A stretch of 52,220 nt of DNA from the IMG/VR virus record IMGVR_UViG_3300014962_000011, positions 1-52,220 of that record. The stretch is one strand, 5' to 3'. The position numbers were made by a program, and so were the translations under genes. Under the pieces are notes generated by a model, which worked only from the letters and a program-made list of their open reading frames with translations, had not been told where the DNA came from and made no database searches. Positions 3,120 through 52,144 of the stretch are shown here, piece after piece (position 1 is the first letter of the stretch; every line of letters starts with the position of its first letter). Source of the stretch: a virus. Lineage: Duplodnaviria > Caudoviricetes.

Positions 3120-4987
3120 TAGATCAGGCATGCATACAGGAGATAAAGGACACTGCGAACGTCGTGGAGGTAGTCGGAAAGTTTGTAAACTTAAAGCCTC
3201 AAGGCGTTAATGTAGTTGGCTTGTGCCCATTTCACAACGAGAAAAGCCCATCTTTCAAAGTTTCAAAGACGAAAAACATATACAAGTGCTTTGGGTGTGG
3301 TGAATCAGGGGATAGTATAGAGTTCCTTATGAAGTCGCAAAGCATGTCCTATCTGGATGCTATACGATACTTGGCAGATATGTACAAAATAACAATTGTT
3401 GAGGAAAATGCACAGCCCAAAAAAACATACACTAAGCCGGTTTTTAGAGATGGTCAACTATCCGGCAAATACCTGAATTGGTTTAGTGAACGTGGAATAA
3501 CGCCAAATACCCTGCAGCAATTCAAAGTGACGCAAGCAATGGAGTGGATGCCTAAAGCCGGTGCGACGGTAGAAACAATCTGCTTTAACTACTTCGTTAA
3601 CGATACGCTTGTTAACATAAAGTACCGCGCAGAAAACAAAGATTTCAAGCTATCGAAAGATGCCGAATTGGTGTTCTATAATGCCGACAGCATGAAAGGG
3701 CGCGATTACGTGGTAATTACGGAGGGGGAGATCGATTGCCTGTCTGTATACCAATCCGGCGCGAAGTCCGTCATTTCGGTTCCTAATGGCGCAGCAAAGG
3801 GTGTTCAAAAGCTCGATTACCTAAACAACTGCTGGGATATGTTTTCAGATAAGACAAACATCATACTCATGGTGGATAACGACGGGCCCGGAATTAACCT
3901 TAGAGACGAACTAGCTAGGCGGTTTGGATATGACAGGTGTTTTAAGGTGGAGTACCCGTCCGACTGTAAGGATGCAAACGATGTGTTAGTAAAGCATGGA
4001 CCATTGAAGATAGCAGAAATGATAAAAAATGCATCTGAGTTCCCGATAGAAGGAGTTTTTTCAATGTCGGAAATGGTGGAAGATGTGAGGGCTTATTATA
4101 ACACTGGCTACCCGGTAGGTATAAAGGTAGGCATACCGGTTTTTGACGATCACCTTTCTTTTATGCTCGGGCAGTTCACTACGATTACCGGCATTCCAGG
4201 TTCCGGCAAAAGTGAGTTTGTGGACTACCTAATGAGCGAATCCGCAAAAAATCACAATTGGAGCTGGGGAGTTTGCAGTTTTGAAAATCAGCCATCTAGC
4301 CTACACGTTACCAAGATAATGGAAAAGTATGCCGGCAAAGCATTTTCTAAGCAGTTTAATGATGAAGATAGAATTAGCCCGGAAATGTTTGATAGAGCAA
4401 TAAACTTTGTTGATGCTCATTTCTACTTCATCAACATCAACAAAGTAGATGTTACACTCGAAGGGATATTGGAGAAAACGAAAGAGCTGGTGTTAAGGAA
4501 GGGCATAAAGGGGCTTTTAATAGATCCGTGGAACTACATAGAACATAAGGGAGCAAAAGGGCAGACGGAAACACAATACGTTAGCGAATGCCTAACTAAA
4601 ATAAAGGCTTTCGCGCTGACGCACGGCATACATATATTCCTAGTCGCGCACCCGCTTAAAATGCCTAAGACGGGCGGCAAATACGAAGTTCCTACACTAT
4701 ACAATATTTCCGGGTCTGCGCACTTTTTCAATAAGACGGATAACGGGCTTACCGTTTACCGCGACCTAGATACCAAAATAGTCGATGTGCATATACAGAA
4801 AGTGCGATATAGTTGGCTTGGCAAAATAGGCGTTGCTTCATTCCTGTACAATTTAACTACAAGGCAGTACGAGCCATTGCACCGGCAAAAGGATCCACCG
4901 GCGCAGGAAGTGCCGGATAAGGCAAACGCTGGCATAATACAGCAGCCGACACGCCCCCCCGCCTCATTCTGGAACGAACCAACATAA
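3116..4987 (+). CDS. primase-helicase (CHC2 zinc finger + TOPRIM + Twinkle/T7 gp4-like helicase)
   Basis: CPFHNEKSPSF...KCFGCG; ITEGEIDCLS; DNDGPG...KDANDVL; Walker A TGIPGSGKS; LLIDPWN; LVAHP; SGSAHF. Confidence 0.92.
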   Translation: MIDQACIQEIKDTANVVEVVGKFVNLKPQGVNVVGLCPFHNEKSPSFKVSKTKNIYKCFGCGESGDSIEFLMKSQSMSYLDAIRYLADMYKITIVEENAQPKKTYTKPVFRDGQLSGKYLNWFSERGITPNTLQQFKVTQAMEWMPKAGATVETICFNYFVNDTLVNIKYRAENKDFKLSKDAELVFYNADSMKGRDYVVITEGEIDCLSVYQSGAKSVISVPNGAAKGVQKLDYLNNCWDMFSDKTNIILMVDNDGPGINLRDELARRFGYDRCFKVEYPSDCKDANDVLVKHGPLKIAEMIKNASEFPIEGVFSMSEMVEDVRAYYNTGYPVGIKVGIPVFDDHLSFMLGQFTTITGIPGSGKSEFVDYLMSESAKNHNWSWGVCSFENQPSSLHVTKIMEKYAGKAFSKQFNDEDRISPEMFDRAINFVDAHFYFININKVDVTLEGILEKTKELVLRKGIKGLLIDPWNYIEHKGAKGQTETQYVSECLTKIKAFALTHGIHIFLVAHPLKMPKTGGKYEVPTLYNISGSAHFFNKTDNGLTVYRDLDTKIVDVHIQKVRYSWLGKIGVASFLYNLTTRQYEPLHRQKDPPAQEVPDKANAGIIQQPTRPPASFWNEPT

Positions 4988-6829: not shown

Positions 6830-7408
6830 ATGACAGCAGAACAGATTCTCGAAATATTTAACATAGAAGACTTACGCGACCTGCCAAATGCGGTATCGAG
6901 CCTTATTGATGGAGATGCCAAGATTAGATATGAGGCATATATAAAATTGATAGAAATAAACGGAGGTGATTTGTCAAAAGATTGGTTTCAGGAAATATAC
7001 GAAGGCGAGTTGTCGGAACGAAAGCAAAAGAAGCAGGATTTTACCCCAAACAGCGTAGGGCTTATTGCGTCATTACTGACCGGGAATAAGGGAATGCTAT
7101 ATGAGCCTACGGCTGGTAATGGATCTATGATAATATCCGATTGGTGGACTAGGTGCGGGAAGTCGAACCCGTGCCGATATTCTCCAGCCGAAAATATGGT
7201 CACCTGCTGGGAGTTGTCCAATAGATCAATACCGATATTACTACTCAACCTATCTATACGTGGTATTATGGGATATGTGTATCACGGCGATGTTTTAGAG
7301 CAAACAATAAAGGCAAAGTATGTGTTGCTAAACAGGAGCAATGACGCACTCGGTTTTTCTGAAATAATCAAAGATGTTAATAACAACCTTAAAATAGTAG
7401 AAATATGA
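6830..7408 (+). CDS. N6-adenine methyltransferase-like protein (HsdM-like SAM-binding half, no NPPY/F motif)
   Basis: QDFTP, motif I YEPTAGNGSM, ELS, HGDVL; the protein ends before any motif IV. Confidence 0.7.
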   Translation: MTAEQILEIFNIEDLRDLPNAVSSLIDGDAKIRYEAYIKLIEINGGDLSKDWFQEIYEGELSERKQKKQDFTPNSVGLIASLLTGNKGMLYEPTAGNGSMIISDWWTRCGKSNPCRYSPAENMVTCWELSNRSIPILLLNLSIRGIMGYVYHGDVLEQTIKAKYVLLNRSNDALGFSEIIKDVNNNLKIVEI

Positions 7409-8316
7409 AATTCGAAGAACTGGCAATACAATTTGAAGCCTACAAAAAAAATTTCATCAAGAAGTCGGCAATGTCAGTTTATGTAAACTGCATTGCTTCT
7501 CATCTAGTGCCAGCATTTGGTGAACTTGAAGAGATAAGCGAACACCAAGTACAGGACTTTATATTATCGAAGATCAGCAGCGGCATGAGTCATAATTATG
7601 TGCGCGACTGCATAATGGTGTTAAAGCAAATATTGAAGTGGGGTAAGTCTCGCGCAATATATCCTTACAAAGAATTTGAGAATATTAAATATCCTGTAGA
7701 CCACTCTGTTAAAAAAATAAAGACATATACGTTAGCAGAGACTAAAAAGCTCATTAACTATCTAAAAGACAACCTAACATTTAGGAATCTTGGCATTTTA
7801 ATAGCTGCCAGCTCTGGCATGCGGGTTGGCGAGGTGTGTGCGCTTCAGTGGGGTGATATCGACTTGCAGGCGGGAATAATCACCATTCAGAGAAATATAC
7901 AACGTATATACCACCAGCGAGAAAGCAGGACTGAAATTATTATAGATACACCAAAAACCAAGTCATCACAGAGGCAGGTGCCTATAAGCCCGGATTTGAT
8001 GAAGATATTTAAAGCCCTAAAGTCCATCGCTAAGGACGATCATTATGTAGTTACCAACAGCGCTAAGCCGGAGGAGCCTCGCACCCACCGATCTTATATA
8101 GAGGATTTAGTAAAGATAATTGATATCCCATATTACGGGTATCACGTGCTACGACACACATTCGCAACTAGATGTATAGAGGCGGAGATAGATGTAAAGA
8201 CAGTTAGTGTGATGCTCGGGCATTCAGATGTTAGCATTACACTTAACACATACGTTCACCCTAGCGACGCACAGAAGAAGACGGCAATTAACAAACTATT
8301 CAAAACGCTCGGATAA
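7405..8316 (+). CDS. second tyrosine recombinase (short form)
   Basis: Catalytic set intact: GMRVGE, TPKT, HVLRHT, LGH, NTYVH; ATGA overlap with the MTase-like gene. Confidence 0.9.
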   Translation: MKFEELAIQFEAYKKNFIKKSAMSVYVNCIASHLVPAFGELEEISEHQVQDFILSKISSGMSHNYVRDCIMVLKQILKWGKSRAIYPYKEFENIKYPVDHSVKKIKTYTLAETKKLINYLKDNLTFRNLGILIAASSGMRVGEVCALQWGDIDLQAGIITIQRNIQRIYHQRESRTEIIIDTPKTKSSQRQVPISPDLMKIFKALKSIAKDDHYVVTNSAKPEEPRTHRSYIEDLVKIIDIPYYGYHVLRHTFATRCIEAEIDVKTVSVMLGHSDVSITLNTYVHPSDAQKKTAINKLFKTLG

Positions 8317-23174: not shown

Positions 23175-26100
23175 TTATCTTTTAACTCTGAACTGTAAAT
23201 TTTGCTGCGTCCTTACTGCGTCTACATATGCCTGTGAGACGTTGGGTATCTGTGGCCTGCTGCCATACATAGCCCTTACCATATCGTCGCCAACATCTTC
23301 AAACTTGTTGCCTATATACTTTGTAAGTTCCTTCATGATGGCTCCGTCATTTACCGGGTTGACCATAGGCTGGGTAATGAACATACGGGCCGCCGCCGCC
23401 TGTAAAATGCGGGTTGTTTCCTCTGCTGTATTGATTTTAGTACCAATAGGCATTTTATAAATACCCCTCTTTTCGGCTATGGTCATGCTGCCATCTGGTG
23501 CGGTCATAAGCTCTGCACCTTTTTCGCCCGCGACAAAGTGCTCTGTTGTAGTTGTACCGCCTTTGGCAAATTCGGGCAGTGGAGCGGATGCCGCCGCCGC
23601 ATATTGTACCGCTCCCGTGGCCGCCAGTAACGCCGCAATAGGCACAGCAACAGGGTAAGGAAAATCAACGAACGCCTTTATGATGGCAACGGCTGTATTT
23701 GCTATGATAGAGCTTTCTGCCGCCTGCTTTTGGGCTTTAGCCGCCTTCAATGCCAGCGCATTAGATTTAGCCTGCAATTCGGCTTCTTTTGCCTGTGCCT
23801 GAGCCAATACCTGCTGCTTTTCATTTGCCTTATCAATGGCATAACCCGTAGTAGCATCAATAGCCCTTAACTTTTGGTCTGTGTCATTGCGTAGTGTTTC
23901 CTGTTCGCGCTGGATTTGATTTTGCTCCGACTGTATTCTCTGCTGTGTAGCCTGTGCCTCCGCTTGTATTACTTCCTGAATGAGATTTACCGCCAAATCT
24001 CGGATATGGCGCATGTCATCTTCCTTCTTTCGCCTTATTGCGTCGTCACTATTTGCAATGGCCAGCTCATATTCCTTTTGTTGGCGAATTAGGTCATCGT
24101 ACACCTGCTGGCTCAATGCTACTTGCTTATCAGCTTCCTCTTTGTAGTCTGGAGATAATGGCCCGGATGCATTTTCTTTTGCCTTTTGCAATGCCGCCGC
24201 CGCGCCCGGAATCTGCTGATTCACCCCGTTTAGTCCTATTTGCGCCTGATTCCTATTGTTGCGCTGGTCTTCTATGAATGTTGCATAATCCCTCGTTGCG
24301 GAATTTCCGCCGCCCGACACGATTGATATGAGGCGCTCCAAATGGCCTATATCAGCATTGGTAGACAATGACCGTGTAGCTTCTATTACTTTTGCCGATA
24401 TCTTATTAAAATAATCCTCGGCTAGTTTTAATCTCTGCTTGTATGCATCCCGGTCAATTTGCTTCAATTTTTCGTCCTGCTGGCGCTGCGCCTCAATGAT
24501 CTGGTTGCTATCAGTTATGGTCGCTGCCATTCCCCGGAACTGCGCCTCTAAGGCTTCCTTTTTTGCTTTGGTTTGCAAGTCTATTGCCGCCGCCGATTGT
24601 TCATAGCTAGGAATGCCAAATGCAGCGTTGCTACTAGCTAAATCCGCAGCGCCTTGCAATAGTCCTACGCCGGTCTTTTGATTCCTGGAGTATTCATCTC
24701 GCGAAAATTCATATTCTGCGTTCTTGCGCTCCTGTTCGCCTATTGCCTTGAGCAGATTGAGTAATTTGTCGTAAGCCTGAATATTCTTATCAGTATAGCC
24801 TAGATTGTTTTCGTCTGTCACAGACAGCCTGTATATCTCTCGATTCTTACTGATTTCATCCGTTAAAGCCTTGTATTTCGCCCGGGTGTCTGCAACTATC
24901 TTGTCAACACTTGCTACATCCTCCTTCTCAGTCTCTTGGCGTAGTTGCTCCCGAGTAGCCGAAAGTTCCTTTTGCAGCTCTTTTTCTTTCTGATTCATTA
25001 GCCTGTTGCGATTTTCTACAAAGGCTACTATGGCATTCTGTGTGGCGGCTTCCGTTTCTGTTATCTGCTTTTCTATTGCCTTGCCGTCTGCAACATTCTG
25101 ATTTCTGATGTCATCTATTATCTTTTCTAAGTTCGTGCCAGCCTTAACTGCATCATTAAATTGCTTTTCTATGCCCTTAATTACCGATTCAGGTAGGTTG
25201 CCTTGCATTCGTAGGTATTTTGGCAAATTGGCCCTATCCCCCTCCGCATACGCAAGCGCAGAGCCAATATCCTGACTGATATCCAGCTTCTTTTTAAGTA
25301 GCTTTATTTCTGCCTCCCGGCGCTCGTTTCCTGCGTCCAATACCTCCTTTTCGTGCTCATAAACTGCGTCGTTTACAACTCCAATAGATTTTATCAATTC
25401 CTCTTTACGCTTCAGCCCATCTACCGTATTTGCTTCTATGGCTTTCAGTATTTCTACATTACTTATCGCAGCAAGATTCAGCGTTTTTTGTAACTCTTGA
25501 AGTTTTGTAACTTGGTCAATAACACTTTCAAATGCGGAGGAAAGATTTTTTGCCGCCTCAGCAGTTTTGTTTATACCTTCCTCTGTTTTAAATAGGTCTT
25601 TACCAAATATTTCAAAGGCGGCGTAAGCCAATACAAAAATGTTGGTAAAGTCAAAAAATGACGTTGCAAGTATCTTTAATGCTTTGCCGGTGCTCCCAAC
25701 CTCCGCCCTAAGTATCTTGAATTGGTCAAACAGCCCAGCGAAGTTGTTGGATAATGCCGATAGCCCGGTCTGTATCCCATTTGCAAATGCGGGCGCTTCA
25801 CGTATGAGCTGCGATAGGGCCAATGTTGCATTTTGGTACTGTCCTACTTTCCGCTGATGCCTGCCAACAGATTCCTCAATCTTCACTAGCTGGGTGTTCA
25901 TATCCCTAGCCTTAATAATGAATTTTTGAGCCTCTGCGCTGTCTACACCATACGCAGCCGCCAGCCGCATTGCCTCTTTGGCTGTATCGTTGTAGTTCTT
26001 CTTTAAAACCTCATATTCATCGTTTAGCTTACGCGCTTTTTCCTGTTCGCGCTGCAATAGCTTATCATTAAGATCCTTTTGCTTTTGCAGTTTAATGAGC

Positions 26101-26543
26101 TGCTGTATTTCCTCTGCTTTGGCTTTATTTCGCTCCCTAGTGTTTTTTATTTCTAATGCATCCGCCTTTGCGTTTTCTTGCTTCGCCTTAGCGCTCTGCA
26201 CCTCCACCTGCTCCAGTTGCTTCATCACGCCCACCAGATCCTTAGTGCTGCCATTGTGCTGCGCTTTTAATGCTGCTGCTCTCGCTTCAAGTTCATTGGC
26301 CTCCCGCGTAGCATTACCCAGCTTCAAAAGATTACCCTGAAGGTCTACAATGGTATTGCTGGCATTCTGAACCTGTTTCTGCCATTCGTTGATGTTGGTA
26401 ACTCCCTGTACATCGACCTTAAAGCTCAGAGCCTTAGAACTACCCTCGGCAATCTTGCCAACTACTTCGTCGATGGCCTTTAGCACTTTCGCTTTATCAG
26501 CCTCAATCTGCTCGACCCCAAATATTTTACTAATGTCCTCCAT
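23175..26543 (-). CDS. tape measure protein
   Basis: 1122 aa, Ala/Gln/Glu/Lys coiled coil, GRHQRKVGQY, C-terminal hydrophobic helices and FAKGG...AGEKGAEL. Confidence 0.85.
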   Translation of the reverse strand: MEDISKIFGVEQIEADKAKVLKAIDEVVGKIAEGSSKALSFKVDVQGVTNINEWQKQVQNASNTIVDLQGNLLKLGNATREANELEARAAALKAQHNGSTKDLVGVMKQLEQVEVQSAKAKQENAKADALEIKNTRERNKAKAEEIQQLIKLQKQKDLNDKLLQREQEKARKLNDEYEVLKKNYNDTAKEAMRLAAAYGVDSAEAQKFIIKARDMNTQLVKIEESVGRHQRKVGQYQNATLALSQLIREAPAFANGIQTGLSALSNNFAGLFDQFKILRAEVGSTGKALKILATSFFDFTNIFVLAYAAFEIFGKDLFKTEEGINKTAEAAKNLSSAFESVIDQVTKLQELQKTLNLAAISNVEILKAIEANTVDGLKRKEELIKSIGVVNDAVYEHEKEVLDAGNERREAEIKLLKKKLDISQDIGSALAYAEGDRANLPKYLRMQGNLPESVIKGIEKQFNDAVKAGTNLEKIIDDIRNQNVADGKAIEKQITETEAATQNAIVAFVENRNRLMNQKEKELQKELSATREQLRQETEKEDVASVDKIVADTRAKYKALTDEISKNREIYRLSVTDENNLGYTDKNIQAYDKLLNLLKAIGEQERKNAEYEFSRDEYSRNQKTGVGLLQGAADLASSNAAFGIPSYEQSAAAIDLQTKAKKEALEAQFRGMAATITDSNQIIEAQRQQDEKLKQIDRDAYKQRLKLAEDYFNKISAKVIEATRSLSTNADIGHLERLISIVSGGGNSATRDYATFIEDQRNNRNQAQIGLNGVNQQIPGAAAALQKAKENASGPLSPDYKEEADKQVALSQQVYDDLIRQQKEYELAIANSDDAIRRKKEDDMRHIRDLAVNLIQEVIQAEAQATQQRIQSEQNQIQREQETLRNDTDQKLRAIDATTGYAIDKANEKQQVLAQAQAKEAELQAKSNALALKAAKAQKQAAESSIIANTAVAIIKAFVDFPYPVAVPIAALLAATGAVQYAAAASAPLPEFAKGGTTTTEHFVAGEKGAELMTAPDGSMTIAEKRGIYKMPIGTKINTAEETTRILQAAAARMFITQPMVNPVNDGAIMKELTKYIGNKFEDVGDDMVRAMYGSRPQIPNVSQAYVDAVRTQQNLQFRVKR

Positions 26544-36078: not shown

Positions 36079-38022
36079 TTATGATACTAATTGCATTTCC
36101 TGTGTTCCTACTTTTTGAAGGTCGGCGGTCGTATATCCAAATACTCCATCCATCCCACCACCGGACATTGTAACATTTCGGTCAACTATATCTGTGACCT
36201 TGAATATGCGCCCGTTATGGTCTGATTTCTGCTCCTTGCCGTGTATCACCCTCACTTCGTCGCCAATGTTTATAATTTCGCCGGTCGCAGTCATAAGTAA
36301 TGCGTCGTATTTTTTCATCTCAACATACCGGGTGGTTACATATTGGCGAAGTTTCTCACGTAGAATAACCGCTCCGCCTTCATCTGGCACACTGGCTATG
36401 TCGTAATCAGTAAGCGTGCTTGTCCACTCATCAAAGTACTTTTTCTCCATGCGCTCAGTGAGCGATAATTGCGGATCCGTCCAAATGGTTTCTACCGGTT
36501 CATGGACGAACGGCTCTACCTGCCTGAGTAGTTCCGCCTTACGATATAATTCCGGGTTGCCGTCGAACTTATTTTCGTTGTACTCTATCAATAGCGTGTC
36601 GAGTGTGTACATAGGCGCTTTGCCCTGCACCGCCTTCAGGTATCTTTCCCAAGTGGCATCAGGGCTTTCTATCATAAACCGGTCTCCGCATATAATTGCG
36701 CTACCTTGAAACTGATCGCGGTATTTATACCACGCGCAGGCATCTATGATAAACCGCTGTATCGACACCTTCCACTTTCCAAACAGGCGCAGGCGCTCAT
36801 GTTGTGGCTGTGTATTTAGCTGCGCCTCATAAGCCGTCTTTGAAGTATCGCCGCCACCGCCGCCCGAAGACTTCTGCCCGGCTATTAACGTCCTGTTTTG
36901 ACCCGCAGATTCTGTCACACCCCATGTCGTCAAGTAGAAGTACTGCTCCAGCGTCATGTTATTATCGTACATGAACTGCAAGGCTGCTATATCTGATTCT
37001 ATTCGGCCTAGCGGGGGGTGTGGTATGCTCTTATTCTCGTCATTTCGGTAATCTACTATTGCCACGTCAGCGGTGCGCAAGAAAGGCAGATAGCCTTTGC
37101 CGTGACACTCGGGGCAGTCCTGACCGTCTAACAATGCGTGTCCGTCGCATGTGGGGCACTTAAATTTCTGCATCCACTCTTTAGGGAATACATTTCGCCA
37201 ATATGCCCATGAATACAACGCCCTGTCTGTAAGCATGGCATCCAGCAGATTCAGCGATACAGATAATGGGCTTTCAAAATAGTTGTCTACACCCCATATG
37301 TCCGATATAATCATGCAAGGAACGTAACCAAATTCGTTAGGCACTTCACTTACCACGGTCATATTCTCATATGTAGTCCCGATGCTGCCTCGTGATCCGA
37401 TAGATACGATCCTATCTGCCACATCGTCTATCACCCTGTACACCTTGTTTCTTGGTGGTGTGTCTGCCGGGATAATACCAGCAGATATATACGCGCCTCT
37501 TTCCTCCTTTCCTATCTCAAATACTACGTATTCGAGCGCGCGCCCATTGTTCAGGTAGTCATAAACCTCATCTATACACCTAACCCTCGGGTATGGCTCA
37601 TCGTCTGAATTTATCTCTATTTGAATAAGTCCGTTCGGATCGTAGTCGTAGCGCATCTGCACTATATTCCTAATCCATTCGTCGAGTGGCAGCCCTTCGG
37701 TTATAGACTGTAAGAATATGCTAAAATCAGTTTGCAGGTCTTCGGGCAGGTTGATTTGCGTGAGACCGCCCTTTGCCGTGTATATCTTGTTTCGCGGGGC
37801 CATTACACGGTGAATAGTATCCCTATTAGACCGCATGAACTTAACGAGGGTGTCTTTTGTCCCCTCGCGCATGAACTCTTCTATATTTTCGACGTAATCC
37901 TCAACACCTTCACCGGTAAAGAACATGCGCAGCTTTTGATATTGCGCTTGCGCGGCCTTTATAAAGTCTATGTTTGGCCTGTTGGTTATAATATCCAGTA
38001 TCTCTTTATAGTCGAGGGTCAT
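36079..38022 (-). CDS. portal protein with CxxCxG zinc-finger insert and C-terminal KOW/SH3-like extension
   Basis: 647 aa after terL; DPNGLI; CPTCDGH...CPECHGKG; INIGDEVRVIHG. Confidence 0.75.
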   Translation of the reverse strand: MTLDYKEILDIITNRPNIDFIKAAQAQYQKLRMFFTGEGVEDYVENIEEFMREGTKDTLVKFMRSNRDTIHRVMAPRNKIYTAKGGLTQINLPEDLQTDFSIFLQSITEGLPLDEWIRNIVQMRYDYDPNGLIQIEINSDDEPYPRVRCIDEVYDYLNNGRALEYVVFEIGKEERGAYISAGIIPADTPPRNKVYRVIDDVADRIVSIGSRGSIGTTYENMTVVSEVPNEFGYVPCMIISDIWGVDNYFESPLSVSLNLLDAMLTDRALYSWAYWRNVFPKEWMQKFKCPTCDGHALLDGQDCPECHGKGYLPFLRTADVAIVDYRNDENKSIPHPPLGRIESDIAALQFMYDNNMTLEQYFYLTTWGVTESAGQNRTLIAGQKSSGGGGGDTSKTAYEAQLNTQPQHERLRLFGKWKVSIQRFIIDACAWYKYRDQFQGSAIICGDRFMIESPDATWERYLKAVQGKAPMYTLDTLLIEYNENKFDGNPELYRKAELLRQVEPFVHEPVETIWTDPQLSLTERMEKKYFDEWTSTLTDYDIASVPDEGGAVILREKLRQYVTTRYVEMKKYDALLMTATGEIINIGDEVRVIHGKEQKSDHNGRIFKVTDIVDRNVTMSGGGMDGVFGYTTADLQKVGTQEMQLVS

Positions 38023-38591: not shown

Positions 38592-39995
38592 TTATCTGCG
38601 TAAATATGTGTTATAACCAAATCTTTGCCTTTGCTGTTGTGGGCCGCGTATTATGGTGCAGTCTGCTTCTTGCTTTATCTCGAAGTACATCATCATAATG
38701 AGCATATCCAGATAGTCGGGCGAACGCCCTAGTAATTCTTTCATTAACTCCTTTTTGACAATGCGCTTCTTTGTTTCATCTTTATCAACACTCTCGGCCT
38801 TCAATACGCCAACTTCTTCTATTATCCGTTCTTTCTGCTCTGTGGTGCATATCACCTTTATCCTTCGCTCATTTATCGCACTGGCAAGCTCATAGGCGCA
38901 CTCTGCTTTTATGTTGGCATATTCTGCCTTATTGATTGCAGATGCGCCGCCGTGAAACTCTTTTATTCCAGTCAGGTAACTACCTTCGCCCTTGCTGTCA
39001 GTACCACCTAAGAAGTTACCCAGACCATCACTATCGGCAACCGTTTGACTGCGCGGCACGGCTTCATTTGTCATCGTAGCCTGTAAGTCGCGCACAATGG
39101 ATTTGCCTGTACTTTTTGGCTGATCTATTGGTATTCTCACCACCATGCCGTCACGAACCCCGACTATGAACCTATCCCGGCCCTGCATCGCCAAATCGGC
39201 GCTTATGTACTTCTTGCCCGTCGGCTTCACATGCTCATTGGTGAACATGTCGCAGATAGCATCGTAGTCACATAGTACTGTGGGGTCGTCGTCGTATTCC
39301 CAGTTGCCGAACAAAAGGCGCTCTTTCTGGTTGCGCGATAATGTGCGCATCAGGTTTTCGAGGTATCCATCGGGAAGGCATTTGTTATCCTGCGGTAAGG
39401 CCTGAACAAAACGCTTCCACGGCTCCAGATTCTTATCCTTATGCTTGCGGTAGTATTCGCGGTACAGGTAATTCTTTGACGGGTTACAGGTCTGCAATAG
39501 CTTACCTTTTAGCTTGTACACATCGTTCTTCCACCTGCCTATGCTTGCCCCCAGGTTGTTGACAGCGTCTTCATCAAACTCTCCCGATTCCTCACACCAA
39601 CCGCGCGTCATTTGCATCGAGCCAAAACGCATATAAAGCGGATCGCTCGGCATGAACTCAGCAGCCAGCAGGTAAACAACAGATTTATTGTGCAGCACGA
39701 AGCAATTATCTTGCCCATTGTACTTATACATGCTCTGCTTGATACCCCATTTCTCGAATACCTCATACACTGACGGTATCGTAAACTTACGCAGGTCTGA
39801 CAGCGTAGTACGGGCAATGAAATAGTGCGTACCCGGATAGATAAACGCATCACCAAATATCAAAGAACATCCTAAAAATGATTTACCACTACCCTTGCTG
39901 CCACCATATGCTATATGTGAGACTTCGTCATTAAGCCAATGCCTGCACACTTCTTTTTGCTTGTCGTTGCCTTGCGTATTAAAGACCAGCTCCAT
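38592..39995 (-). CDS. terL: terminase large subunit
   Basis: Walker A YGGSKGSGKS, Walker B WCEESGE, TCNP coupling motif, nuclease ISADLA...DSDGLG...SPDYLD. Confidence 0.93.
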   Translation of the reverse strand: MELVFNTQGNDKQKEVCRHWLNDEVSHIAYGGSKGSGKSFLGCSLIFGDAFIYPGTHYFIARTTLSDLRKFTIPSVYEVFEKWGIKQSMYKYNGQDNCFVLHNKSVVYLLAAEFMPSDPLYMRFGSMQMTRGWCEESGEFDEDAVNNLGASIGRWKNDVYKLKGKLLQTCNPSKNYLYREYYRKHKDKNLEPWKRFVQALPQDNKCLPDGYLENLMRTLSRNQKERLLFGNWEYDDDPTVLCDYDAICDMFTNEHVKPTGKKYISADLAMQGRDRFIVGVRDGMVVRIPIDQPKSTGKSIVRDLQATMTNEAVPRSQTVADSDGLGNFLGGTDSKGEGSYLTGIKEFHGGASAINKAEYANIKAECAYELASAINERRIKVICTTEQKERIIEEVGVLKAESVDKDETKKRIVKKELMKELLGRSPDYLDMLIMMMYFEIKQEADCTIIRGPQQQRQRFGYNTYLRR

Positions 39996-40968: not shown

Positions 40969-42111
40969 TTACCATTTGCTCATTGCATCGTCGAGGCGCT
41001 TTCCTTTTATCCTAAAGTATATTTCTGTGCTCGACCGCTTATTGTGCCCTAATAGCCGCTGAACTTCATCTATGCTCATGCCCAGCTCCGCACAACGCAT
41101 AGCAAATGAATGCCGGAATGAATGACTGCTTATGTCCTTCTTTGTGATCTCGGCAATCCCTATGAGTATTCCCAAAGCTTCATTAAATTCCTGGTTGGTG
41201 ATTTTGAGCGGCTTGTCTTTGATGTAGTCTACAACCTCTGAAATGTACTTGGTGAAAATGATGCTCACTATCTCCCCATTCTTTTGGGCATTTAGTACCA
41301 GCCTGCGCCCGCTGGCATCATGTATCACTTTCTTTGAGTAATCGAAATTTACAGCGTCGGAAAAGCGTAGCCCACTGTAACAGGAGAGTAGGGCATAGTA
41401 GCCAATCAGCCGGTTATGGTCTGTCATTGGCTTTGTCTTTACTGCGCTGTGGAAAGCCTGCATTTCAGCCCATTCGAGGTAGGCCGGTATTCCTTGCTTA
41501 TACTTGCCGGTGTCATAGTCTTTAAGTGGGTTCTTTTCAATAATGCCGCCAACTTTCAACGCGGTATTGCACATTGTCTTCATGAACTTAAATGACTTCC
41601 ACACCGTGTTATCATGATTGTGGAGCGTCTTACGCATGTAGTTCTCATAGCCCTGTAGCCACTTGTAGTTGATGTCTGAGAATAGCAGGGTAGGGGAGTG
41701 GGCTTTCATCTTTGTGATCTCGCTTTCATAGGTGCGTATCGTTTCTTTTGAGTACTTGGCGTTATCTATTTGCTCTGTAGCAAATGCATAGAAGTCGTGC
41801 TTGTTATCGGCTTTCAGCCCCATCATTCGGCGCCTAACATTATCCTCTGTAAATGCTATGCCTGCTTTCCTGTCTTCCTCAAATGCCGCTATAAGGTTGT
41901 GCTTTTCGTCCGATATTTCACGGTTGATGGCGTTGCCTGCAATGTTTTTTTTGGGGTCTACCTGTTCTTTTTTGCTGTCCCAGTGGCCGGGATTAACCTC
42001 TATGCCCAGATTTTTGAACAATCTTTTTTCGCCTTCGCATGGCAAAGTAACCTGCAAAGACAGCTTGCCACCATTGATGCACTTGATCTTTACCGTAGGT
42101 ATTTTTCTCAT
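40969..42111 (-). CDS. int: phage integrase (tyrosine recombinase, Bacteroidetes arm-binding type)
   Basis: N-terminal arm domain (LGIEVNPGHWD), SAM-like core, GLRFSD, QKNG, HSFRHSF, LGH, EIYF. Confidence 0.93.
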   Translation of the reverse strand: MRKIPTVKIKCINGGKLSLQVTLPCEGEKRLFKNLGIEVNPGHWDSKKEQVDPKKNIAGNAINREISDEKHNLIAAFEEDRKAGIAFTEDNVRRRMMGLKADNKHDFYAFATEQIDNAKYSKETIRTYESEITKMKAHSPTLLFSDINYKWLQGYENYMRKTLHNHDNTVWKSFKFMKTMCNTALKVGGIIEKNPLKDYDTGKYKQGIPAYLEWAEMQAFHSAVKTKPMTDHNRLIGYYALLSCYSGLRFSDAVNFDYSKKVIHDASGRRLVLNAQKNGEIVSIIFTKYISEVVDYIKDKPLKITNQEFNEALGILIGIAEITKKDISSHSFRHSFAMRCAELGMSIDEVQRLLGHNKRSSTEIYFRIKGKRLDDAMSKW

Positions 42112-42323: not shown

Positions 42324-43019
42324 TCATTTTTGCCGCTGCATAATGCCACTATTCCTATTGCGTTTTATCATTCCGGTAATGTCGTAAATGTGTATCACAT
42401 CGGCAAAATCTATGTCGAATGGCGGGTAGAAATATTCCCCTTCCATTGGCCCGTTTATGTGCTTGAGGTTATTGTCGCTGACGCACTTAAAGCCTGTTCT
42501 ATCCTTGTTGTAGTATAGCCTCTTGAATAACCTGTTGCCCTTTGTTACCAGCAGATACGTTTCCCCCGGCTGTATGAACTTGTCGAGGTTCAAACGTATG
42601 CCTACAACACAGCCGGGAGGGTAGGCTGGTGTCATACTATTGCCATACACGATAAATGCGGCCTGACTGTCTTTTAGCAGATCGCCGACGTTGATATATT
42701 CCTGTTCAACGGGGGTGTCGCTATAATGCATTTCCATGTCTGTTCCTGCCATTGCTTCTCCTAGTATTGGTACGCGCCTTTCGTTGTGTGACGCTGGCGG
42801 CGTAGGGGTTTGTGGTGGTGGATTTTCTATTTCTTGTGTGAATTTTTCTAATTCAGGATAAGCAGCATTGATTTTAGAAAGCATTTTTGGGGAAATATTG
42901 CTCCCTGTTTTGTCAATATTCCTCAAATAGCCATTACTTAACCCGGCTTTTTGCTCAAATGCCGTGTTTGTAATGTTTTGATTTTCAATGAATTTGAAAA
43001 TACTTTCTATTTTTCTCAC
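42324..43019 (-). CDS. cI: CI-like repressor (HTH + S24 peptidase)
   Basis: N-terminal FEQKAGLSNGYL HTH; VPILG, AG cleavage site (AMAG), VYGNSMTP, FKRL; divergent from cro. Confidence 0.88.
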   Translation of the reverse strand: MRKIESIFKFIENQNITNTAFEQKAGLSNGYLRNIDKTGSNISPKMLSKINAAYPELEKFTQEIENPPPQTPTPPASHNERRVPILGEAMAGTDMEMHYSDTPVEQEYINVGDLLKDSQAAFIVYGNSMTPAYPPGCVVGIRLNLDKFIQPGETYLLVTKGNRLFKRLYYNKDRTGFKCVSDNNLKHINGPMEGEYFYPPFDIDFADVIHIYDITGMIKRNRNSGIMQRQK

Positions 43020-48011: not shown

Positions 48012-48863
48012 ATGAGCAACACAACACAAGTACAGAAAAAAACAGGCATCGCAGCCATATCAGAATACCTTAACGGCGGAGCGGTAGCTAAGAAGTTTGA
48101 AAGCATGATGGGCAAGCGGTCAACGCAGTTCATTACAAGCGTAATGCACGTTTGCGCCAACAATGAGCTATTAAAGAACGCCCTGCCCGAAACGGTCTAC
48201 CAAGCGGCAGCAGTAGCAGCTACGCTGGATCTGCCAATCAACAACAACCTGGGGTTTGCCTACATTATCCCTTACAAGGAAAAGCGCGAAGACGAACAAG
48301 GGCGCACCTATGATGTAGTAGTAGCTCAATTCCAGATGGGTTACAAGGGATTTATTCAACTGGCACAGCGTAGCGGTCAATTCAAGTACATAGGGGCAAG
48401 CCCTATATTCGAGGGGCAGCTAATAGAAAACAACCCGCTTACCGGCAACATCTTCGACTTTTCCAAAAAGAAGTCCGACACCGTAATAGGCTATGCAGCC
48501 GGATTCGTCCTTCTCAATGGCTTTGACACCACATTTTACATGCCGGTTGAAAAAATACACGCTCACGCCAAAAGGTACTCAAAGACCTATGAGAACAAAA
48601 ACGGTCGCTGGAAGCTGGACTTTGAAGGCATGGCAACCAAGACGGTTATTAAGTTGCTCCTGTCCAAATACGCCCCGCTATCAGTAGAAACAATCCAAAG
48701 CGCGGTAATGTTCGACCAAGCCACCATAAAGGACTTTGAGACAAAAGAAGTTGAGTACACGGACGCGGTAGAGGTGGAGCAGCACGTATTGGATGCTGTA
48801 AACATCGACAAAAAAGCAGTAGAAGCGGCAAAAACATCACAGCCAGAATTAAACATGCCATAA
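48012..48863 (+). CDS. recT: RecT-family single-strand annealing protein
   Basis: AATLDLPINNNLGFAYIIPY...AQFQMGYKGFIQLAQRSGQ...GYAA...HAKRYSK...MATKTVIK. Confidence 0.9.
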   Translation: MSNTTQVQKKTGIAAISEYLNGGAVAKKFESMMGKRSTQFITSVMHVCANNELLKNALPETVYQAAAVAATLDLPINNNLGFAYIIPYKEKREDEQGRTYDVVVAQFQMGYKGFIQLAQRSGQFKYIGASPIFEGQLIENNPLTGNIFDFSKKKSDTVIGYAAGFVLLNGFDTTFYMPVEKIHAHAKRYSKTYENKNGRWKLDFEGMATKTVIKLLLSKYAPLSVETIQSAVMFDQATIKDFETKEVEYTDAVEVEQHVLDAVNIDKKAVEAAKTSQPELNMP

Positions 48864-48864
48864 C

Positions 48865-50967
48865 ATGAGCCAGTACAAAGAATATACCCCCGAGCAGGTT
48901 GAAGGTCTGGTAAGCCAGTTCCTTGTAAGCAGTTGGAGCTTTTCCCGCGTGTCAACGTTTGCGCGAAATGAAAAGGCTTTCGAGATGCAATACATCTTTA
49001 ACGTAGCCGCAAAGCTGTCGGCAACCACCATAGCGGGGCAGGCATACCACGCGGCGGTAGAGGCGTATTTCTTTAACCGCAAACGGGGGCATACGCTGGC
49101 GCTGGCAGACTTGGAAATTGTTTCTTTCAACTACATAGATGAAGTAAAGGCTAACCGATGGAAGATACAGAAAACAACGCCAACCATTGACGAATGCAGG
49201 GCTAAGGCTACGCAGTTGGCTACTATGCTGGTCAGGAACTTCTTCGCGGAAATATCGACCTATGAGGAAGATATAAAGGAGATAATAGATGTTGAGGTGA
49301 AATGCGAGGAGTTCCTGACCATTAATGGGGTAGACGTACCGCTGCCATGCCATGCGCGTATCGACCTAGTGGTAAGGACGAAAAGCGACCGTGTGGCGAT
49401 TGTTGACCATAAAAGCCGGTCCGGATATACATCAGACGATGAAATAGCAATGTCCATAGGCAGGCAGGCAATAACCTACATAAAGAGCTATGAGGCTAAG
49501 ACCGGGCAGCCAGTAGATGAAGTTTGGTTTATAGAGAATAAAACATCTATGAACAAAGACAAGTCACCACAGCTTAAAGCCTTTAAGATTGTGCTCGACG
49601 CTGATACCCGCAAGCTATACGAATCCCTGCTTTATGAGCCACTACGCCGCATGATAACAGCCGTAAACGACCCGGATTATGTGTACATGATGAACGACAC
49701 AGACAACTATGTAGACCGGGCCGAAATGTACGACTTCTGGGCGCGTACCATGATAAGCGAGGTTGACGACTTCAATGTAGACACGAGCAAGCGCGACCTA
49801 ATAACCAAGCGTCTGCGAAAAATACGGGACGCATCCGCGCCAATGGTAAGCCCACAGGTAATAAAACAGTTCAAAGAAAACGCAGCATCATTCATTCAAT
49901 ACGATTTAAGCCATACTAATATGACACCAAGCGAAAAGATAGAGCACGTACTACGCAGCTTTGGCATTATTGCCCGAGTCGCCCACCAGATGCAGGGATA
50001 TTCCAGCGATACATTCTTACTTGAAGTGTCCGCCGGGGTGCAAATATCCTCCATGAAAAAACACAGGCTGGACATTGCCAACGCCCTCGACGTTTCAAAC
50101 GTCCGTTTCTCTGAAAACCTTGTAATGCATGAAGGGAAGTCTTACATATCTGTAGACTTTTCAAAGAAGCGCGACCGGGATTTGATTTTCGACGAATCAG
50201 CTTTGGTTGGTCGCAGGTTGCCGCTGGGTAAGGATAATTTCGGTAATACCGTTGTGTGGGACTTGGATAACCACGCCACCCCTCATATGTTGATATGCGG
50301 GCAGACGGGTAGCGGCAAAAGTGTTAGCATACAATCAACTATTGAGTATGCGATACAATCCGGGATTGACAATATTATCATTCTCGATCCAAAATTCGAG
50401 TTCACAGATTATAATGACGTGCTGGGCATAACTGTAGTTAATGAAATTCTCGCCATAGAAAAGGAAATGGCAAAGCTGGTAGAGTACATGAATGAGCTAG
50501 TTCGCACAGGACGCAAAGAACCCACGCTTGTTGTGTTTGATGAGTTCGCGGACGCAGTGGCACAGTCGCGTAAAGGCAAAGAGCTGGACATAATGGAAAT
50601 GGTTCAGACCGGCACATATAAGAATGGTGCGCCAAAAATGGACTTAAAGAAAACAGGAGAACTTAAATCACTAGAGGAAAACCTACGCATACTGCTGCAA
50701 AAAGGACGCTCGTCTGGATTCAGGATAATAGCCGCTACGCAGCGTGCATCGGTTAAGGTAATCACAGGAGACGCAAAGGTGAATTTCCCTGTACAGGTTT
50801 GTTTCCGCGTACCAAAAGAGGCGGACAGCCGGGTAGTACTTGACGAAGCCGGGGCCGAATCATTAGCCGGCATGGGTGACGGGCTTATCAAGTCACCAGA
50901 GTACACGGAAACGGTTCGATTCCAGGCATACTACAAACCAAAGACTAACAAGGTAAAAGCCGCCTAA
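48865..50967 (+). CDS. PD-(D/E)XK nuclease fused to an FtsK alpha/beta motor
   Basis: N-terminal WSFSRV...GQAYH...E...RIDLV...IVDHKS...QAITY. FtsK alpha VLRSFGI...GVQISS...DIANAL. ATPase PHMLICGQTGSGKS, ILDPK, VVFDEFAD, GRSSG...ATQR, DSRVVLD..GAESLAGMGD. Confidence 0.88.
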   Translation: MSQYKEYTPEQVEGLVSQFLVSSWSFSRVSTFARNEKAFEMQYIFNVAAKLSATTIAGQAYHAAVEAYFFNRKRGHTLALADLEIVSFNYIDEVKANRWKIQKTTPTIDECRAKATQLATMLVRNFFAEISTYEEDIKEIIDVEVKCEEFLTINGVDVPLPCHARIDLVVRTKSDRVAIVDHKSRSGYTSDDEIAMSIGRQAITYIKSYEAKTGQPVDEVWFIENKTSMNKDKSPQLKAFKIVLDADTRKLYESLLYEPLRRMITAVNDPDYVYMMNDTDNYVDRAEMYDFWARTMISEVDDFNVDTSKRDLITKRLRKIRDASAPMVSPQVIKQFKENAASFIQYDLSHTNMTPSEKIEHVLRSFGIIARVAHQMQGYSSDTFLLEVSAGVQISSMKKHRLDIANALDVSNVRFSENLVMHEGKSYISVDFSKKRDRDLIFDESALVGRRLPLGKDNFGNTVVWDLDNHATPHMLICGQTGSGKSVSIQSTIEYAIQSGIDNIIILDPKFEFTDYNDVLGITVVNEILAIEKEMAKLVEYMNELVRTGRKEPTLVVFDEFADAVAQSRKGKELDIMEMVQTGTYKNGAPKMDLKKTGELKSLEENLRILLQKGRSSGFRIIAATQRASVKVITGDAKVNFPVQVCFRVPKEADSRVVLDEAGAESLAGMGDGLIKSPEYTETVRFQAYYKPKTNKVKAA

Positions 50968-50970
50968 ATT

Positions 50971-51234
50971 ATGACAGTCACAATCCACGGTATAGACTAC
51001 GAATGCAGCCCTGAGCTGGCAGAGGTTGTAAAGCAGCTTTATGACGAAGGGGTGCGCCTGAACCAGCAGGTAGAAACTATGGTGCAGACCATTGCAAACT
51101 ACCAGATGAAGAATGAAACAGCGGTGGCGCACCCTACAAGGGAAACGAGGTTACAGGTGTGGAAGGCTAAGAAGCAGCTATTGGAGTTGATACCAAAGAA
51201 CAAGATTGAGCAATTACAATTTTTCAGAGCATAA
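50971..51234 (+). CDS. coiled-coil hypothetical protein
   Basis: Directly downstream of the nuclease-FtsK gene. Confidence 0.6.
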   Translation: MTVTIHGIDYECSPELAEVVKQLYDEGVRLNQQVETMVQTIANYQMKNETAVAHPTRETRLQVWKAKKQLLELIPKNKIEQLQFFRA

Positions 51235-51264: not shown

Positions 51265-51576
51265 ATGAAGCAACACAAATTCAAAGCACAGCGAACAGAA
51301 ATAGACGGGATAAAGTTTGCCAGCAAGAAAGAGGCTAATAGGTATGTGATACTAAAGCTAATGGATAAACAGGGGTATATACGAAACCTACGCCTGCAAG
51401 TCCCATACGATCTGAATCCCGGCGGCGCGTTCAAATATCGCTACTTCGCTGACTTTGTTTATGAGCAGGGTAATGATACGATTGTCGAGGATTGCAAGGG
51501 GTATTTAACAAGAGAGTACAAAAAGAAACGCGCTTTGATGCTAAAGATACACAACATAAAAATAAAGGAGGTATAG
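51265..51576 (+). CDS. DUF1064-family PD-(D/E)XK nuclease (putative resolvase)
   Basis: DGIKFASKKEANRY...LRLQVPY...YFADFVY...VEDCKG...YKKKR. Confidence 0.85.
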   Translation: MKQHKFKAQRTEIDGIKFASKKEANRYVILKLMDKQGYIRNLRLQVPYDLNPGGAFKYRYFADFVYEQGNDTIVEDCKGYLTREYKKKRALMLKIHNIKIKEV

Positions 51577-51577
51577 T

Positions 51578-52144
51578 GTGGAAATTATTTCATGGAAGCC
51601 GGTAGTAGGCTATGAAGGATTGTACGAAGTGAGCGACATGGGACGCGTGCGCAGCCTACATAAGAATACAAAGTCATCTAAGGTTGCTGGCAACATAATG
51701 CGTTTACACGCAAAACCAAAAGGGTATTTAGGAGTATCGCTTAGTAAGAATGGAAAGGTGTCCACTAAAATGGTGCATAGAATTGTCGCTATTGCGTTTA
51801 TATCCAACCCGTTTGGCAAGTTGACAGTAAACCACAAAGATGCAGACAAGCAAAACAACAGAGTAGATAACCTAGAGTGGGCTACGCAGTTAGAAAATGT
51901 CCAGCACGCTCGTGCTTTGGGGTTACAGCCGCCCATGTCCCCAAACTGTTGGGCTGCATCTACAAAAGCTATATCCAAAAAGGTGAGCATGTATTCAATT
52001 TCTGGAGATTATATCAGATCATTCCCTAGTACGCACGAAGCTTTCCGAGTTACAGGAATTTCTCAAACCGGAATATCGAAAATATGCCGTAATAAGATTA
52101 AAAATCCTACTAGGTATGTTTTCAAATACGACAACAAGCATTAA
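51578..52144 (+). CDS. NUMOD4-HNH homing endonuclease with C-terminal NUMOD1-like domain
   Basis: WKPVVGYEGLYEVSDMGRVRS; VHRIVA..F; VNHKDADKQNNRVDNLEW; FPSTHEA. Confidence 0.9.
   Translation: MEIISWKPVVGYEGLYEVSDMGRVRSLHKNTKSSKVAGNIMRLHAKPKGYLGVSLSKNGKVSTKMVHRIVAIAFISNPFGKLTVNHKDADKQNNRVDNLEWATQLENVQHARALGLQPPMSPNCWAASTKAISKKVSMYSISGDYIRSFPSTHEAFRVTGISQTGISKICRNKIKNPTRYVFKYDNKH

Follow-up and report, generated by a model that had tools for sequence, protein, structure and literature searches.

What does a protein that joins a nuclease to an FtsK-type DNA motor do beside the recT gene of a phage? This question is raised by the virus record IMGVR_UViG_3300014962_000011 (Duplodnaviria; Caudoviricetes), which was analysed over its whole length of 52,220 bases (hereafter the window) and has the gene layout of a temperate tailed phage, read here as one of Bacteroidota. 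On its plus strand, the gene of a 283-aa RecT-family single-strand annealing protein (SSAP; 48012-48863) is followed after 1 nt by an open reading frame (ORF) of 700 aa (48865-50967), the junction reading ...CCA GAA TTA AAC ATG CCA TAA c ATG. A first-pass annotation had described this arrangement correctly and had read the second gene as a nuclease-translocase fusion that makes single-stranded DNA for RecT. The RecT assignment exceeds the curated cut-offs of both PF03837 (4e-39; 134.7 bits against 24) and TIGR00616 (173.7 bits against 52.65), and the protein also matches phrog_148 (4.2e-66). We propose that the 700-aa protein is probably an ATP-powered ring translocase-nuclease, serving as the exonuclease partner in a two-gene phage recombination module.

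The fusion protein begins with a PD-(D/E)XK nuclease domain of the Cas4/RecB/Dna2 type (aa 1-300; 48865-49764, plus strand, like all parts of this gene), within which PDDEXK_1 (PF12705) spans aa 23-234 (6e-13). A helical linker (aa 301-350; 49765-49914) leads to an FtsK alpha domain (aa ~351-435; 49915-50169), recognised by FtsK_alpha (PF17854) over aa 353-431 (2.2e-6; 28.2 bits against a cut-off of 22.9). The RecA-like FtsK beta ATPase domain follows (aa ~436-690; 50170-50934), with FtsK_SpoIIIE (PF01580) spanning aa 453-544 (3e-10; 40.4 bits against 24). The family phrog_1358 covers aa 330-691 (4.4e-47). In profile comparison with FtsK, the fusion aligns solely to the alpha-beta construct of the P. 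aeruginosa protein (2iuu; E 5.5e-102, profile positions 338-673), and the match stops where the beta domain ends; HerA structures score far weaker than FtsK (8xau, 4.4e-6).

We then compared 51 members of the family. Among the nuclease residues, E144 is kept in 48 of the 51 and Y205 in 35, while D167, D181-H-K183 and Q201 are kept in all. The ATPase motifs are likewise conserved, namely Walker A (G479..G484-K485-S486), Walker B (D559-E560) and A-T625-Q626-R627. Down to 25% identity, D167, D181, K183, Q201, G479, G484, K485, E560, R615 and Q626 are invariant (51/51). Invariant active-site residues in both halves indicate that both activities are under selection, and both enzymatic halves look active. 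By contrast with these residues, no cysteine column is conserved in the 51 members (the best reaches 16/51), indicating that there is no Fe-S cluster. No membrane segment was found, the highest 19-residue Kyte-Doolittle mean being 0.93, and in the structural model the N-terminal part folds into a globular nuclease domain rather than a membrane anchor. The gamma (winged-helix, KOPS/XerD) domain is also absent: the window protein ends 13 residues past the last conserved residue, Q687, and the C-termini of the 51 members end a median of 5 and a maximum of 33 residues after this position. Thus, the first-pass description of a PD-(D/E)XK nuclease lacking Fe-S cysteines, joined to an FtsK alpha domain and an intact ATPase with neither membrane anchor nor gamma domain, agrees with domain matches, profiles, hydropathy and family C-termini alike.

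An AlphaFold2 model built on the 51 relatives has a mean predicted local distance difference test score (pLDDT) of 90.6 and a predicted template modelling score (pTM) of 0.55. Over aa 321-350 the mean pLDDT of successive 10-residue blocks falls to 62, 67 and 55. The low pTM and this low-confidence stretch of the linker, which is probably flexible, suggest two bodies on a flexible tether. In Foldseek searches, the C-terminal body matches solved FtsK motors (2ius, 6e-24; 2ius/6t8o, ~1e-23), and the N-terminal body matches Dna2 (5eax, 1.8e-8) and the Cas4-family ACE1 (9iac, 1.5e-7). The N-terminal body also resembles common phage PD-(D/E)XK, Cas4-family and RecB-like exonucleases in BFVD, where no viral model spans both halves (best query TM-score, TMq, 0.40). 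We also observed a beta-hairpin insertion (aa ~570-600; 50572-50664) between Walker B and the R615 helix. It is confidently modelled, has no counterpart in FtsK in the profile alignment and occurs in about 30-40 of the 51 members. PADLOC models match the ATPase half only (mad8, 3.1e-21; SspH, 4.2e-16 over aa 323-690), with no full-length match; the SspH profiles have 1561 and 1766 positions, and the 700-aa fusion matches only their C-terminal end. NCBIfam has no model for the fusion, its FtsK equivalog scoring 105.7 bits against a cut-off of 1566, and the naming sources label the protein 'FtsK/SpoIIIE family protein' or 'hypothetical protein'.

The first-pass annotation had named an assembly chimera as a possible source of such a fusion. 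This is ruled out by numerous full-length relatives, including some in complete chromosomes. A word-indexed search, in which 8000 candidates were scored, gave at least 2320 matching protein clusters (E<=1e-3); the 120 clusters listed are full length (query coverage 96-100%, identity 63-100%), and both PF12705 and PF01580 are found in 118 of these. When 1.84 billion representatives were searched exhaustively, 124 of them (50% clustering) reached E<=1e-30, many being full length at 25-57% identity. In species-representative genomes the fusion is sporadic, with 20 loci, all under Bacteroidota names and two of them in complete chromosomes (L002 and L011); when the nuclease domain was searched for in a further 300 genomes, sampled within the phylum of one host, none had a match. 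The full architecture is absent from cultured phages, a tblastn search of 50,697 records having matched 278, none over 80% or more of the query; these matches cover the FtsK half only (Mycobacterium and Bacillus phages). Further clusters with the same three Pfam families appear as leads in the ESM Atlas under Uroviricota, Myxococcota, Nitrospirota and Cyanobacteriota. Judged by its sequences, the fusion is a real, old and widespread family.

We then investigated the genes beside the fusion in 66 full-length loci, consisting of the window, 19 genome loci and 46 IMG/VR loci. Upstream DNA is available for 65 of them (all except L037). Upstream ORFs were grouped by BLAST, and the cluster representatives were scanned against PHROGs or Pfam. 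An SSAP lies upstream of the fusion in 63 of the 65 loci. The largest class is phrog_3657, annotated as 'unknown function' (22 loci), followed by RecT of phrog_148 (18, including the window), RecT/Bet-like proteins of phrog_2780/252 (9), RecT-like proteins of phrog_561 (7), Sak4-like AAA_24 proteins of phrog_1366/124 (4) and Erf (3). The annealase linkage proposed in the first-pass annotation is thus wider than claimed, extending to six SSAP groups instead of RecT alone. At most loci the SSAP stop and the fusion start abut or overlap, and small ORFs intervene in only 3 of the 63 (L041, L051 and L057). In the remaining two loci, a 226-aa protein of no recognised family stands directly upstream of the fusion (L025), or no SSAP is seen within the 1.26 kb of available upstream DNA (L012). 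SSAP linkage is near-obligate, and the nuclease gene is adjacent to and co-oriented with the SSAP gene. Among 35 window ORFs scanned against PHROGs, no exonuclease other than the fusion was found. On balance, we think that the fusion fills the exonuclease slot of a phage exonuclease-annealase module. Among loci without the full fusion, several IMG/VR loci (L083, L084, L095, L097, L098 and L074) have a stand-alone FtsK alpha-beta protein (264-396 aa) and a separate PD-(D/E)XK ORF 2-4 kb downstream, perhaps the same pairing in unfused form. In L047, an FtsK-only protein of 318 aa is 54% identical to the C-terminal half of the window protein, with no nuclease ORF detected.

The most frequent partner, phrog_3657, has no Pfam or NCBIfam match, and occupies the SSAP slot of its 22 loci as proteins such as L001:5177-6004, L007:4964-5992, L020:3298-4416 and L041:2623-3411. 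Its structural model (pLDDT 82.8) was compared with known structures by VIA-align. The best scores are to RAD52 (8tkq, Z 7.7 over 137 aa; 5jrb, Z 7.6), with Sak of phage 80alpha (Z 6.3) and Mgm101 (Z 6.2) also matched; SSAPs hold five of the six top ranks, at middling Z values that are all below 8. The C-terminal helical part (aa 181-246) resembles the C-terminal domain of Red beta (Z 5.9 and 5.5). A Foldseek search with the same model returned no match at E<=0.001. A divergent RecT was considered and rejected, as hhalign gives a probability of 1.9% and aligns the tails alone; a BLAST single-linkage bridge between phrog_3657 and RecT vanishes at E<1e-15, leaving two separate groups. Judged by its place in the SSAP slot and by a model that looks Rad52/Sak-like, phrog_3657 is probably a large unrecognised SSAP family. 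One of its ESM Atlas clusters has 2148 members. The 226-aa protein upstream of the fusion in L025 (L025:4085-4765) has a weak phrog_15333 match, no NCBIfam match and the same C-terminal tail as SSAPs beside the fusion (...KKETLKEKGNSSKPEML, discussed below). It may be another annealase family.

A quick maximum-likelihood tree of 61 distinct fusion rows falls into two deep clades, a close clade of 43 rows, in which every named record belongs to Bacteroidota, and a distant clade of 18 rows, whose partners are of the RecT type only. SSAP class requires at least 22 changes on this tree; the minimum possible is 8, and the mean after shuffling is 35.2. The nearest relative of the window (L017, fusion 72% identical) is paired with a Sak4-like protein instead of RecT. 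The fusions of L033 and L032 are identical (697/697), the former lying behind a RecT-like gene and the latter behind a phrog_3657 gene; L029, also with phrog_3657, differs from L033 at only two residues (695/697 identical). In a comparison of L033 and L029 DNA, 98.2% identity begins inside the last codons of the L033 SSAP gene (~4985). Such a junction suggests that the SSAP cassette was exchanged very recently, the break falling within the tail. On the evidence of these pairings, SSAPs of different folds are swapped freely beside a constant fusion.

In the close clade, unrelated SSAPs have a common C-terminal tail of the approximate pattern [DE]-x-K-K-x2-[LM]-[KR]-(5 to 30 residues)-P-x-[LM]-P-COOH. 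We aligned 35 tails from six or more SSAP groups (alignment A4). In the window RecT, the tail occupies aa 261-283 (48792-48860, plus strand), ends ...IDKKAVEAAKTSQPELNMP and is a candidate docking peptide. Tails were scored either loosely, by an end in [LM][PLMA]-COOH, or strictly, by the full pattern. Among 40 distinct upstream proteins of at least 200 aa in the close clade, 38 pass the loose score (all except those of L035 and L045) and 27 the strict one. Neither score is reached by any of 16 proteins of the distant clade. Among 75 distinct RecT relatives (40-62% identical) with no fusion within 4 kb, one passes loosely and none strictly. The other ORFs of at least 100 aa, a background counted by the strict pattern, gave a single match in 497, L041:2623-3411, which is the phrog_3657 SSAP lying 1.6 kb upstream of its fusion. 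As this background match was itself an SSAP, the tail motif had found the SSAP. The tail follows the fusion clade even within phrog_2780, being present in L010 and L011, whereas the ends are acidic in L053-L075. Short acidic tails (...EESDDE, ...ETVDGE) are found in the RecT/Bet-like partners of the distant clade (L053-L056, L069, L070 and L075) and may be a clade-specific alternative docking signal.

The shared tail may be a portable docking peptide for the fusion. A different explanation, which we hold to be possible though rather doubtful, is that it binds a factor other than the fusion, for example host SSB, the sliding clamp or some further phage protein, or that it reflects nucleotide constraints of the downstream translation start. 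Interactions of host SSB with the C-terminal regions of SSAPs have been reported (10.1101/2020.04.14.041095, PMC6393309; these and the other papers cited here are represented by the parts of their text available to us), the last SSAP codons overlap the fusion start in many loci, and lysine codons are A-rich. A tail made only by the overlapping start would be expected to disappear on separation; it is retained in L008, L013, L066 and L041, where 176-215 nt or other ORFs, up to 1.6 kb, lie between the SSAP and the fusion start, indicating that it is not a mere consequence of the overlap at the fusion start. It might be objected that the tail is simply a trait of the host; in answer to this, none of the RecT genes (0/11) that have no fusion beside them, from 401 genomes sampled within the phylum of one host (G001, recorded as Flavobacterium), has the tail by either score. 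Its strict absence from all 75 fusion-less RecT relatives and its distribution within phrog_2780 also argue for a link to the fusion clade. Several of the fusion-less host-phylum RecTs (L181-L191) end with an aromatic residue after Pro or Gly (...APF, ...DPGF, ...GPGY, ...DVPF), possibly a different tail type for another partner.

How would such a machine work? We infer a hexamer of the FtsK alpha-beta part on double-stranded DNA, probably at an end, which would use ATP to pump the DNA in at the beta face and out at the alpha face. In FtsK, the duplex passes the beta ring first and leaves through the alpha ring (PMC7321959); the nuclease of HerA-NurA is mounted on HerA at its N-terminal exit face and receives DNA from the motor (PMC9960219). 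Since the nuclease of the fusion is N-terminal to the alpha domain, the ring would carry up to six Cas4/RecB-type nuclease domains on flexible linkers at the DNA exit. The first-pass idea of a motor feeding DNA to its own nuclease fits this domain order at the exit face of FtsK (PMC7321959), and the ATP dependence of resection would follow from the same analogy. Removal of one strand by the nucleases, probably in the 5'->3' direction, would expose 3' single-stranded DNA, which the upstream SSAP (RecT here; elsewhere Erf, Sak4-like proteins, other RecTs or the Rad52-like phrog_3657) would coat and anneal. In the Bacteroidota clade, the SSAP would be recruited by the short portable tail KK-x2-[LM][KR]-linker-P-x-[LM]-P-COOH. 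Such a tail would explain the exchange of SSAPs of unrelated folds beside the same fusion. More tentatively, and with somewhat less than even confidence, we suggest that the single-chain ring is a 'resectosome' serving as a universal SSAP front end, into which unrelated SSAPs plug via the portable C-terminal peptide, so that annealases become interchangeable cassettes. Protein clearing, repair of CRISPR or restriction breaks and host-DNA degradation, all raised in the first-pass annotation, may be further roles.

Several points weigh against this proposal. The oligomeric state, end loading, strand polarity and ATP coupling are carried over from relatives. FtsK closes around duplex DNA and is not known to contain an element that separates the strands, which leaves the sparing of one strand unexplained, and six nuclease domains per ring could equally destroy both strands. 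The profiles of the six SSAP groups find no match in the available flanks of 33 FtsK-only or truncated loci, six of which have a PD-(D/E)XK ORF of their own at a distance of 2-4 kb; thus, a phage FtsK motor does not have to work with SSAPs. As for the tail, its binding partner could be some other factor, from phage or host, whose occurrence simply coincides with the close clade. The sample of loci was limited by the search pattern and includes near-duplicates (8 loci of one virus group), and the fusion tree comes from a quick search instead of a finished one. A complex prediction of the fusion (alignment A1) with 45-residue SSAP tails (A4) scored 0.00 and, with controls not run, is uninformative either way.

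With destruction of both strands in mind, the fusion could be a machine for host takeover or anti-defence, whose motor reels in host, plasmid or competitor DNA to be shredded, while the SSAP only profits or is protected. No strand-separating pin is visible in the model, and six nucleases per ring would suit this task. HerA/FtsK-superfamily motor-nuclease pairs are common in conflict systems, DndH combining a restriction endonuclease (REase) with a HerA/FtsK ATPase (PMC10853773); the ATPase half of the fusion matches mad8 and SspH, and the PHROGs class for phage FtsK-like proteins is 'moron, auxiliary metabolic gene and host takeover'. We nevertheless regard this as unlikely, as the SSAP linkage is near-obligate and translationally coupled (63/65 loci), the gene lies in an early replication-recombination operon, the SSAP tail tracks the fusion clade, and the defence-model matches are confined to the ATPase half. 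The same matches, together with known defence complexes of HerA-clade ATPases and nucleases (PMC11291478), could point to prophage defence or superinfection exclusion by an FtsK/HerA-type ATPase with a nuclease effector that lies near recombination genes by chance. This seems very improbable for a gene that lies in a lytic early operon beyond the CI-like repressor region, where it is co-oriented and translationally coupled with an SSAP, and that does not occupy a moron position. Its SSAP link holds across two deep clades, and it lacks the other DndH/SspH domains, with 700 aa against the 1561 and 1766 profile positions.

The neighbouring genes raise yet another reading, in which a late recombination or fork enzyme resembling RuvAB-RuvC uses the FtsK ring to migrate branches or clear proteins and the PD-(D/E)XK domain to cut branched intermediates. 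FtsK tracks duplex DNA (PMC7321959), the module has genes for a DUF1064/phrog_190 'Holliday junction resolvase' and for a primase-helicase as neighbours, and in some loci (L013 and L044) the fusion is followed by replication initiators. However, a separate resolvase-like gene is thereby already present, by type the nuclease domain belongs with exonucleases of the Cas4/RecB/Dna2 kind and with the RecB-like and Cas4-family exonucleases of phages, and the gene holds the SSAP-adjacent slot that exonucleases hold in known modules (PMC2896510, PMC8093625), so that we give this reading little credence. The takeover, fork and defence readings each fit some features, and none of them explains the near-obligate SSAP linkage together with the tail. 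We retain the exonuclease partner of an SSAP as the preferred reading of the fusion.

A PD-(D/E)XK-FtsK fusion next to SSAPs was not found described in the literature searched, from which the supplementary tables of SSAP surveys and Iyer et al. 2004 were outside scope; the first-pass impression of an undescribed architecture agrees with this. The available parts of PMC7824862, PMC4569894, PMC2896510, PMC8093625, PMC11611040 and PMC10853773 contain no such description, and the words 'FtsK' and 'translocase' each occur 0 times in those of the SSAP-neighbourhood papers PMC2896510 and PMC8093625. In the same review and survey texts, the phage exonuclease-annealase pairs are those of RecE, lambda Exo, YqaJ and other PD-(D/E)XK proteins, with no motor mentioned. 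Likewise, no description of a tail shared by SSAPs of different folds was found in the literature searched. Motor-nuclease coupling in this ATPase superfamily is already known from HerA-NurA and DndH/SspH, and exonuclease-annealase pairs are textbook knowledge. What appears to be new is an FtsK alpha-beta motor fused to a Cas4-like nuclease as a regular SSAP partner, and the shared tail on unrelated SSAPs.

Exonuclease-annealase pairs underlie recombineering, and an FtsK-driven nuclease family would add a new mechanistic class to them. It would tie FtsK-type motors to end resection outside the HerA-NurA lineage and would explain how phages swap annealases of different folds. If the resectosome reading is true, this would be the first motor-driven exonuclease-annealase system, and it would supply a docking tag that can be transferred and a natural basis for double-stranded DNA recombineering in Bacteroidota; the genes are candidate parts for such work in Bacteroides, Flavobacterium and relatives. 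The tail could serve as a simple sequence tag predicting SSAPs that work with the motor-nuclease, and the analysis as a whole points to phrog_3657 as a probable large SSAP family that lacks annotation.

The rest of the window is organised as follows. The minus strand encodes a tape-measure-like protein (23175-26543), the portal (36079-38022), the terminase large subunit (38592-39995), a tyrosine recombinase of the integrase family (40969-42111) and, beside it, a CI-like repressor (42324-43019). The early operon, which contains the recT-fusion pair, starts on the plus strand near 43.6 kb. Downstream of the fusion on the same strand is an ORF of 87 aa (50971-51234), which the first-pass annotation had considered as a possible part of the system. 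No PHROG, PADLOC or significant Pfam family matched it, and it is a singleton among the 65 downstream ORFs compared, of which the largest cluster comprises 8 near-identical loci. As the downstream gene is not conserved, the 87-aa ORF does not belong to the recT-fusion unit, and the suggestion is not supported. The DUF1064 gene (51265-51576, plus strand; PF06356, 1.3e-15; phrog_190, 1e-27, annotated as Holliday junction resolvase) belongs to the same replication-recombination operon as the fusion and is not adjacent to it; tblastn matches to DUF1064 are frequent in the flanks of fusion loci (5/20 genome loci). An HNH/NUMOD4 endonuclease gene (51578-52144, plus strand) lies near the right end of the record, and a second HNH endonuclease gene (1774-2409) lies near the left end. 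The left-end block of the plus strand encodes the primase-helicase (3116-4987), a methyltransferase and, downstream of the latter, a second tyrosine recombinase of 303 aa (7405-8316), so that one phage has two integrase-family genes. An ORF with a signal-peptide-like start extends past the 3' end of the record (~52175). No terminal repeat was found in the 52,220-base record.

We finally compared the fusion with known systems. To our knowledge, the lambda Exo, RecE and YqaJ exonucleases have no motor domain. Exonucleases of these types are toroidal trimers or tetramers. The recT-fusion pair resembles lambda Exo-Red beta, RecE-RecT and YqaJ-RecT in its adjacent, co-transcribed nuclease and SSAP genes, its place in a temperate-phage early operon and its PD-(D/E)XK fold, as well as in the exchangeability of the SSAP family beside the nuclease (PMC2896510). 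On the other hand, the nuclease of the fusion is of the Cas4/RecB type and is joined to an intact, conserved FtsK alpha-beta ATPase. In the available text of the review PMC11611040, it is only the annealases that are called ATP-independent. In lambda, the C-terminal domain of the SSAP binds the exonuclease (PMC6393309), whereas the candidate docking element for the fusion is a short linear SSAP tail and not a folded domain.

With bacterial FtsK/SpoIIIE, the fusion shares the alpha and beta domains and all ATPase motifs. However, it has no membrane domain, long linker or gamma domain, and hence would have no KOPS reading and no XerD activation; it adds the N-terminal nuclease and the beta-hairpin insertion after Walker B. 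Dna2, AddAB and RecBCD likewise couple a RecB-family PD-(D/E)XK nuclease to an ATP-driven motor for DNA-end resection, and Dna2 has the same order of nuclease followed by motor and is a structural match (5eax, E 1.8e-8). Their motors are superfamily 1 helicases that track along single strands, and Dna2, AddB and Cas4 carry a four-cysteine Fe-S cluster. The motor of the fusion, by contrast, would be a ring-shaped pump for double-stranded DNA, and its nuclease has no conserved Fe-S cysteines.

DndH and SspH also combine, in one chain, a nuclease of the restriction-endonuclease fold followed by a HerA/FtsK-like ATPase (PMC10853773). These are large multidomain defence proteins (DndH averages ~1700 residues) found in host defence islands. 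Their core consists of a helicase remnant, a target recognition domain (TRD), an inactive methyltransferase (MTase), the REase and the ATPase, of which the fusion matches the ATPase part only, and the gene context of the fusion is that of phage recombination. A functional analogy is offered by HerA-NurA of archaea and Deinococcus, in which a ring translocase of the FtsK-HerA superfamily feeds a nuclease at its N-terminal exit face for ATP-dependent resection (PMC9960219). HerA belongs to a clade with a HAS barrel, whereas the fusion belongs to the FtsK clade with an alpha domain. NurA has another fold and is a separate dimeric subunit (6:2), whereas the fusion is one chain with six PD-(D/E)XK domains per presumed ring, and it stands in a phage context with an SSAP partner. 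By this analogy, the fusion would work like HerA-NurA while not being a member of that system.

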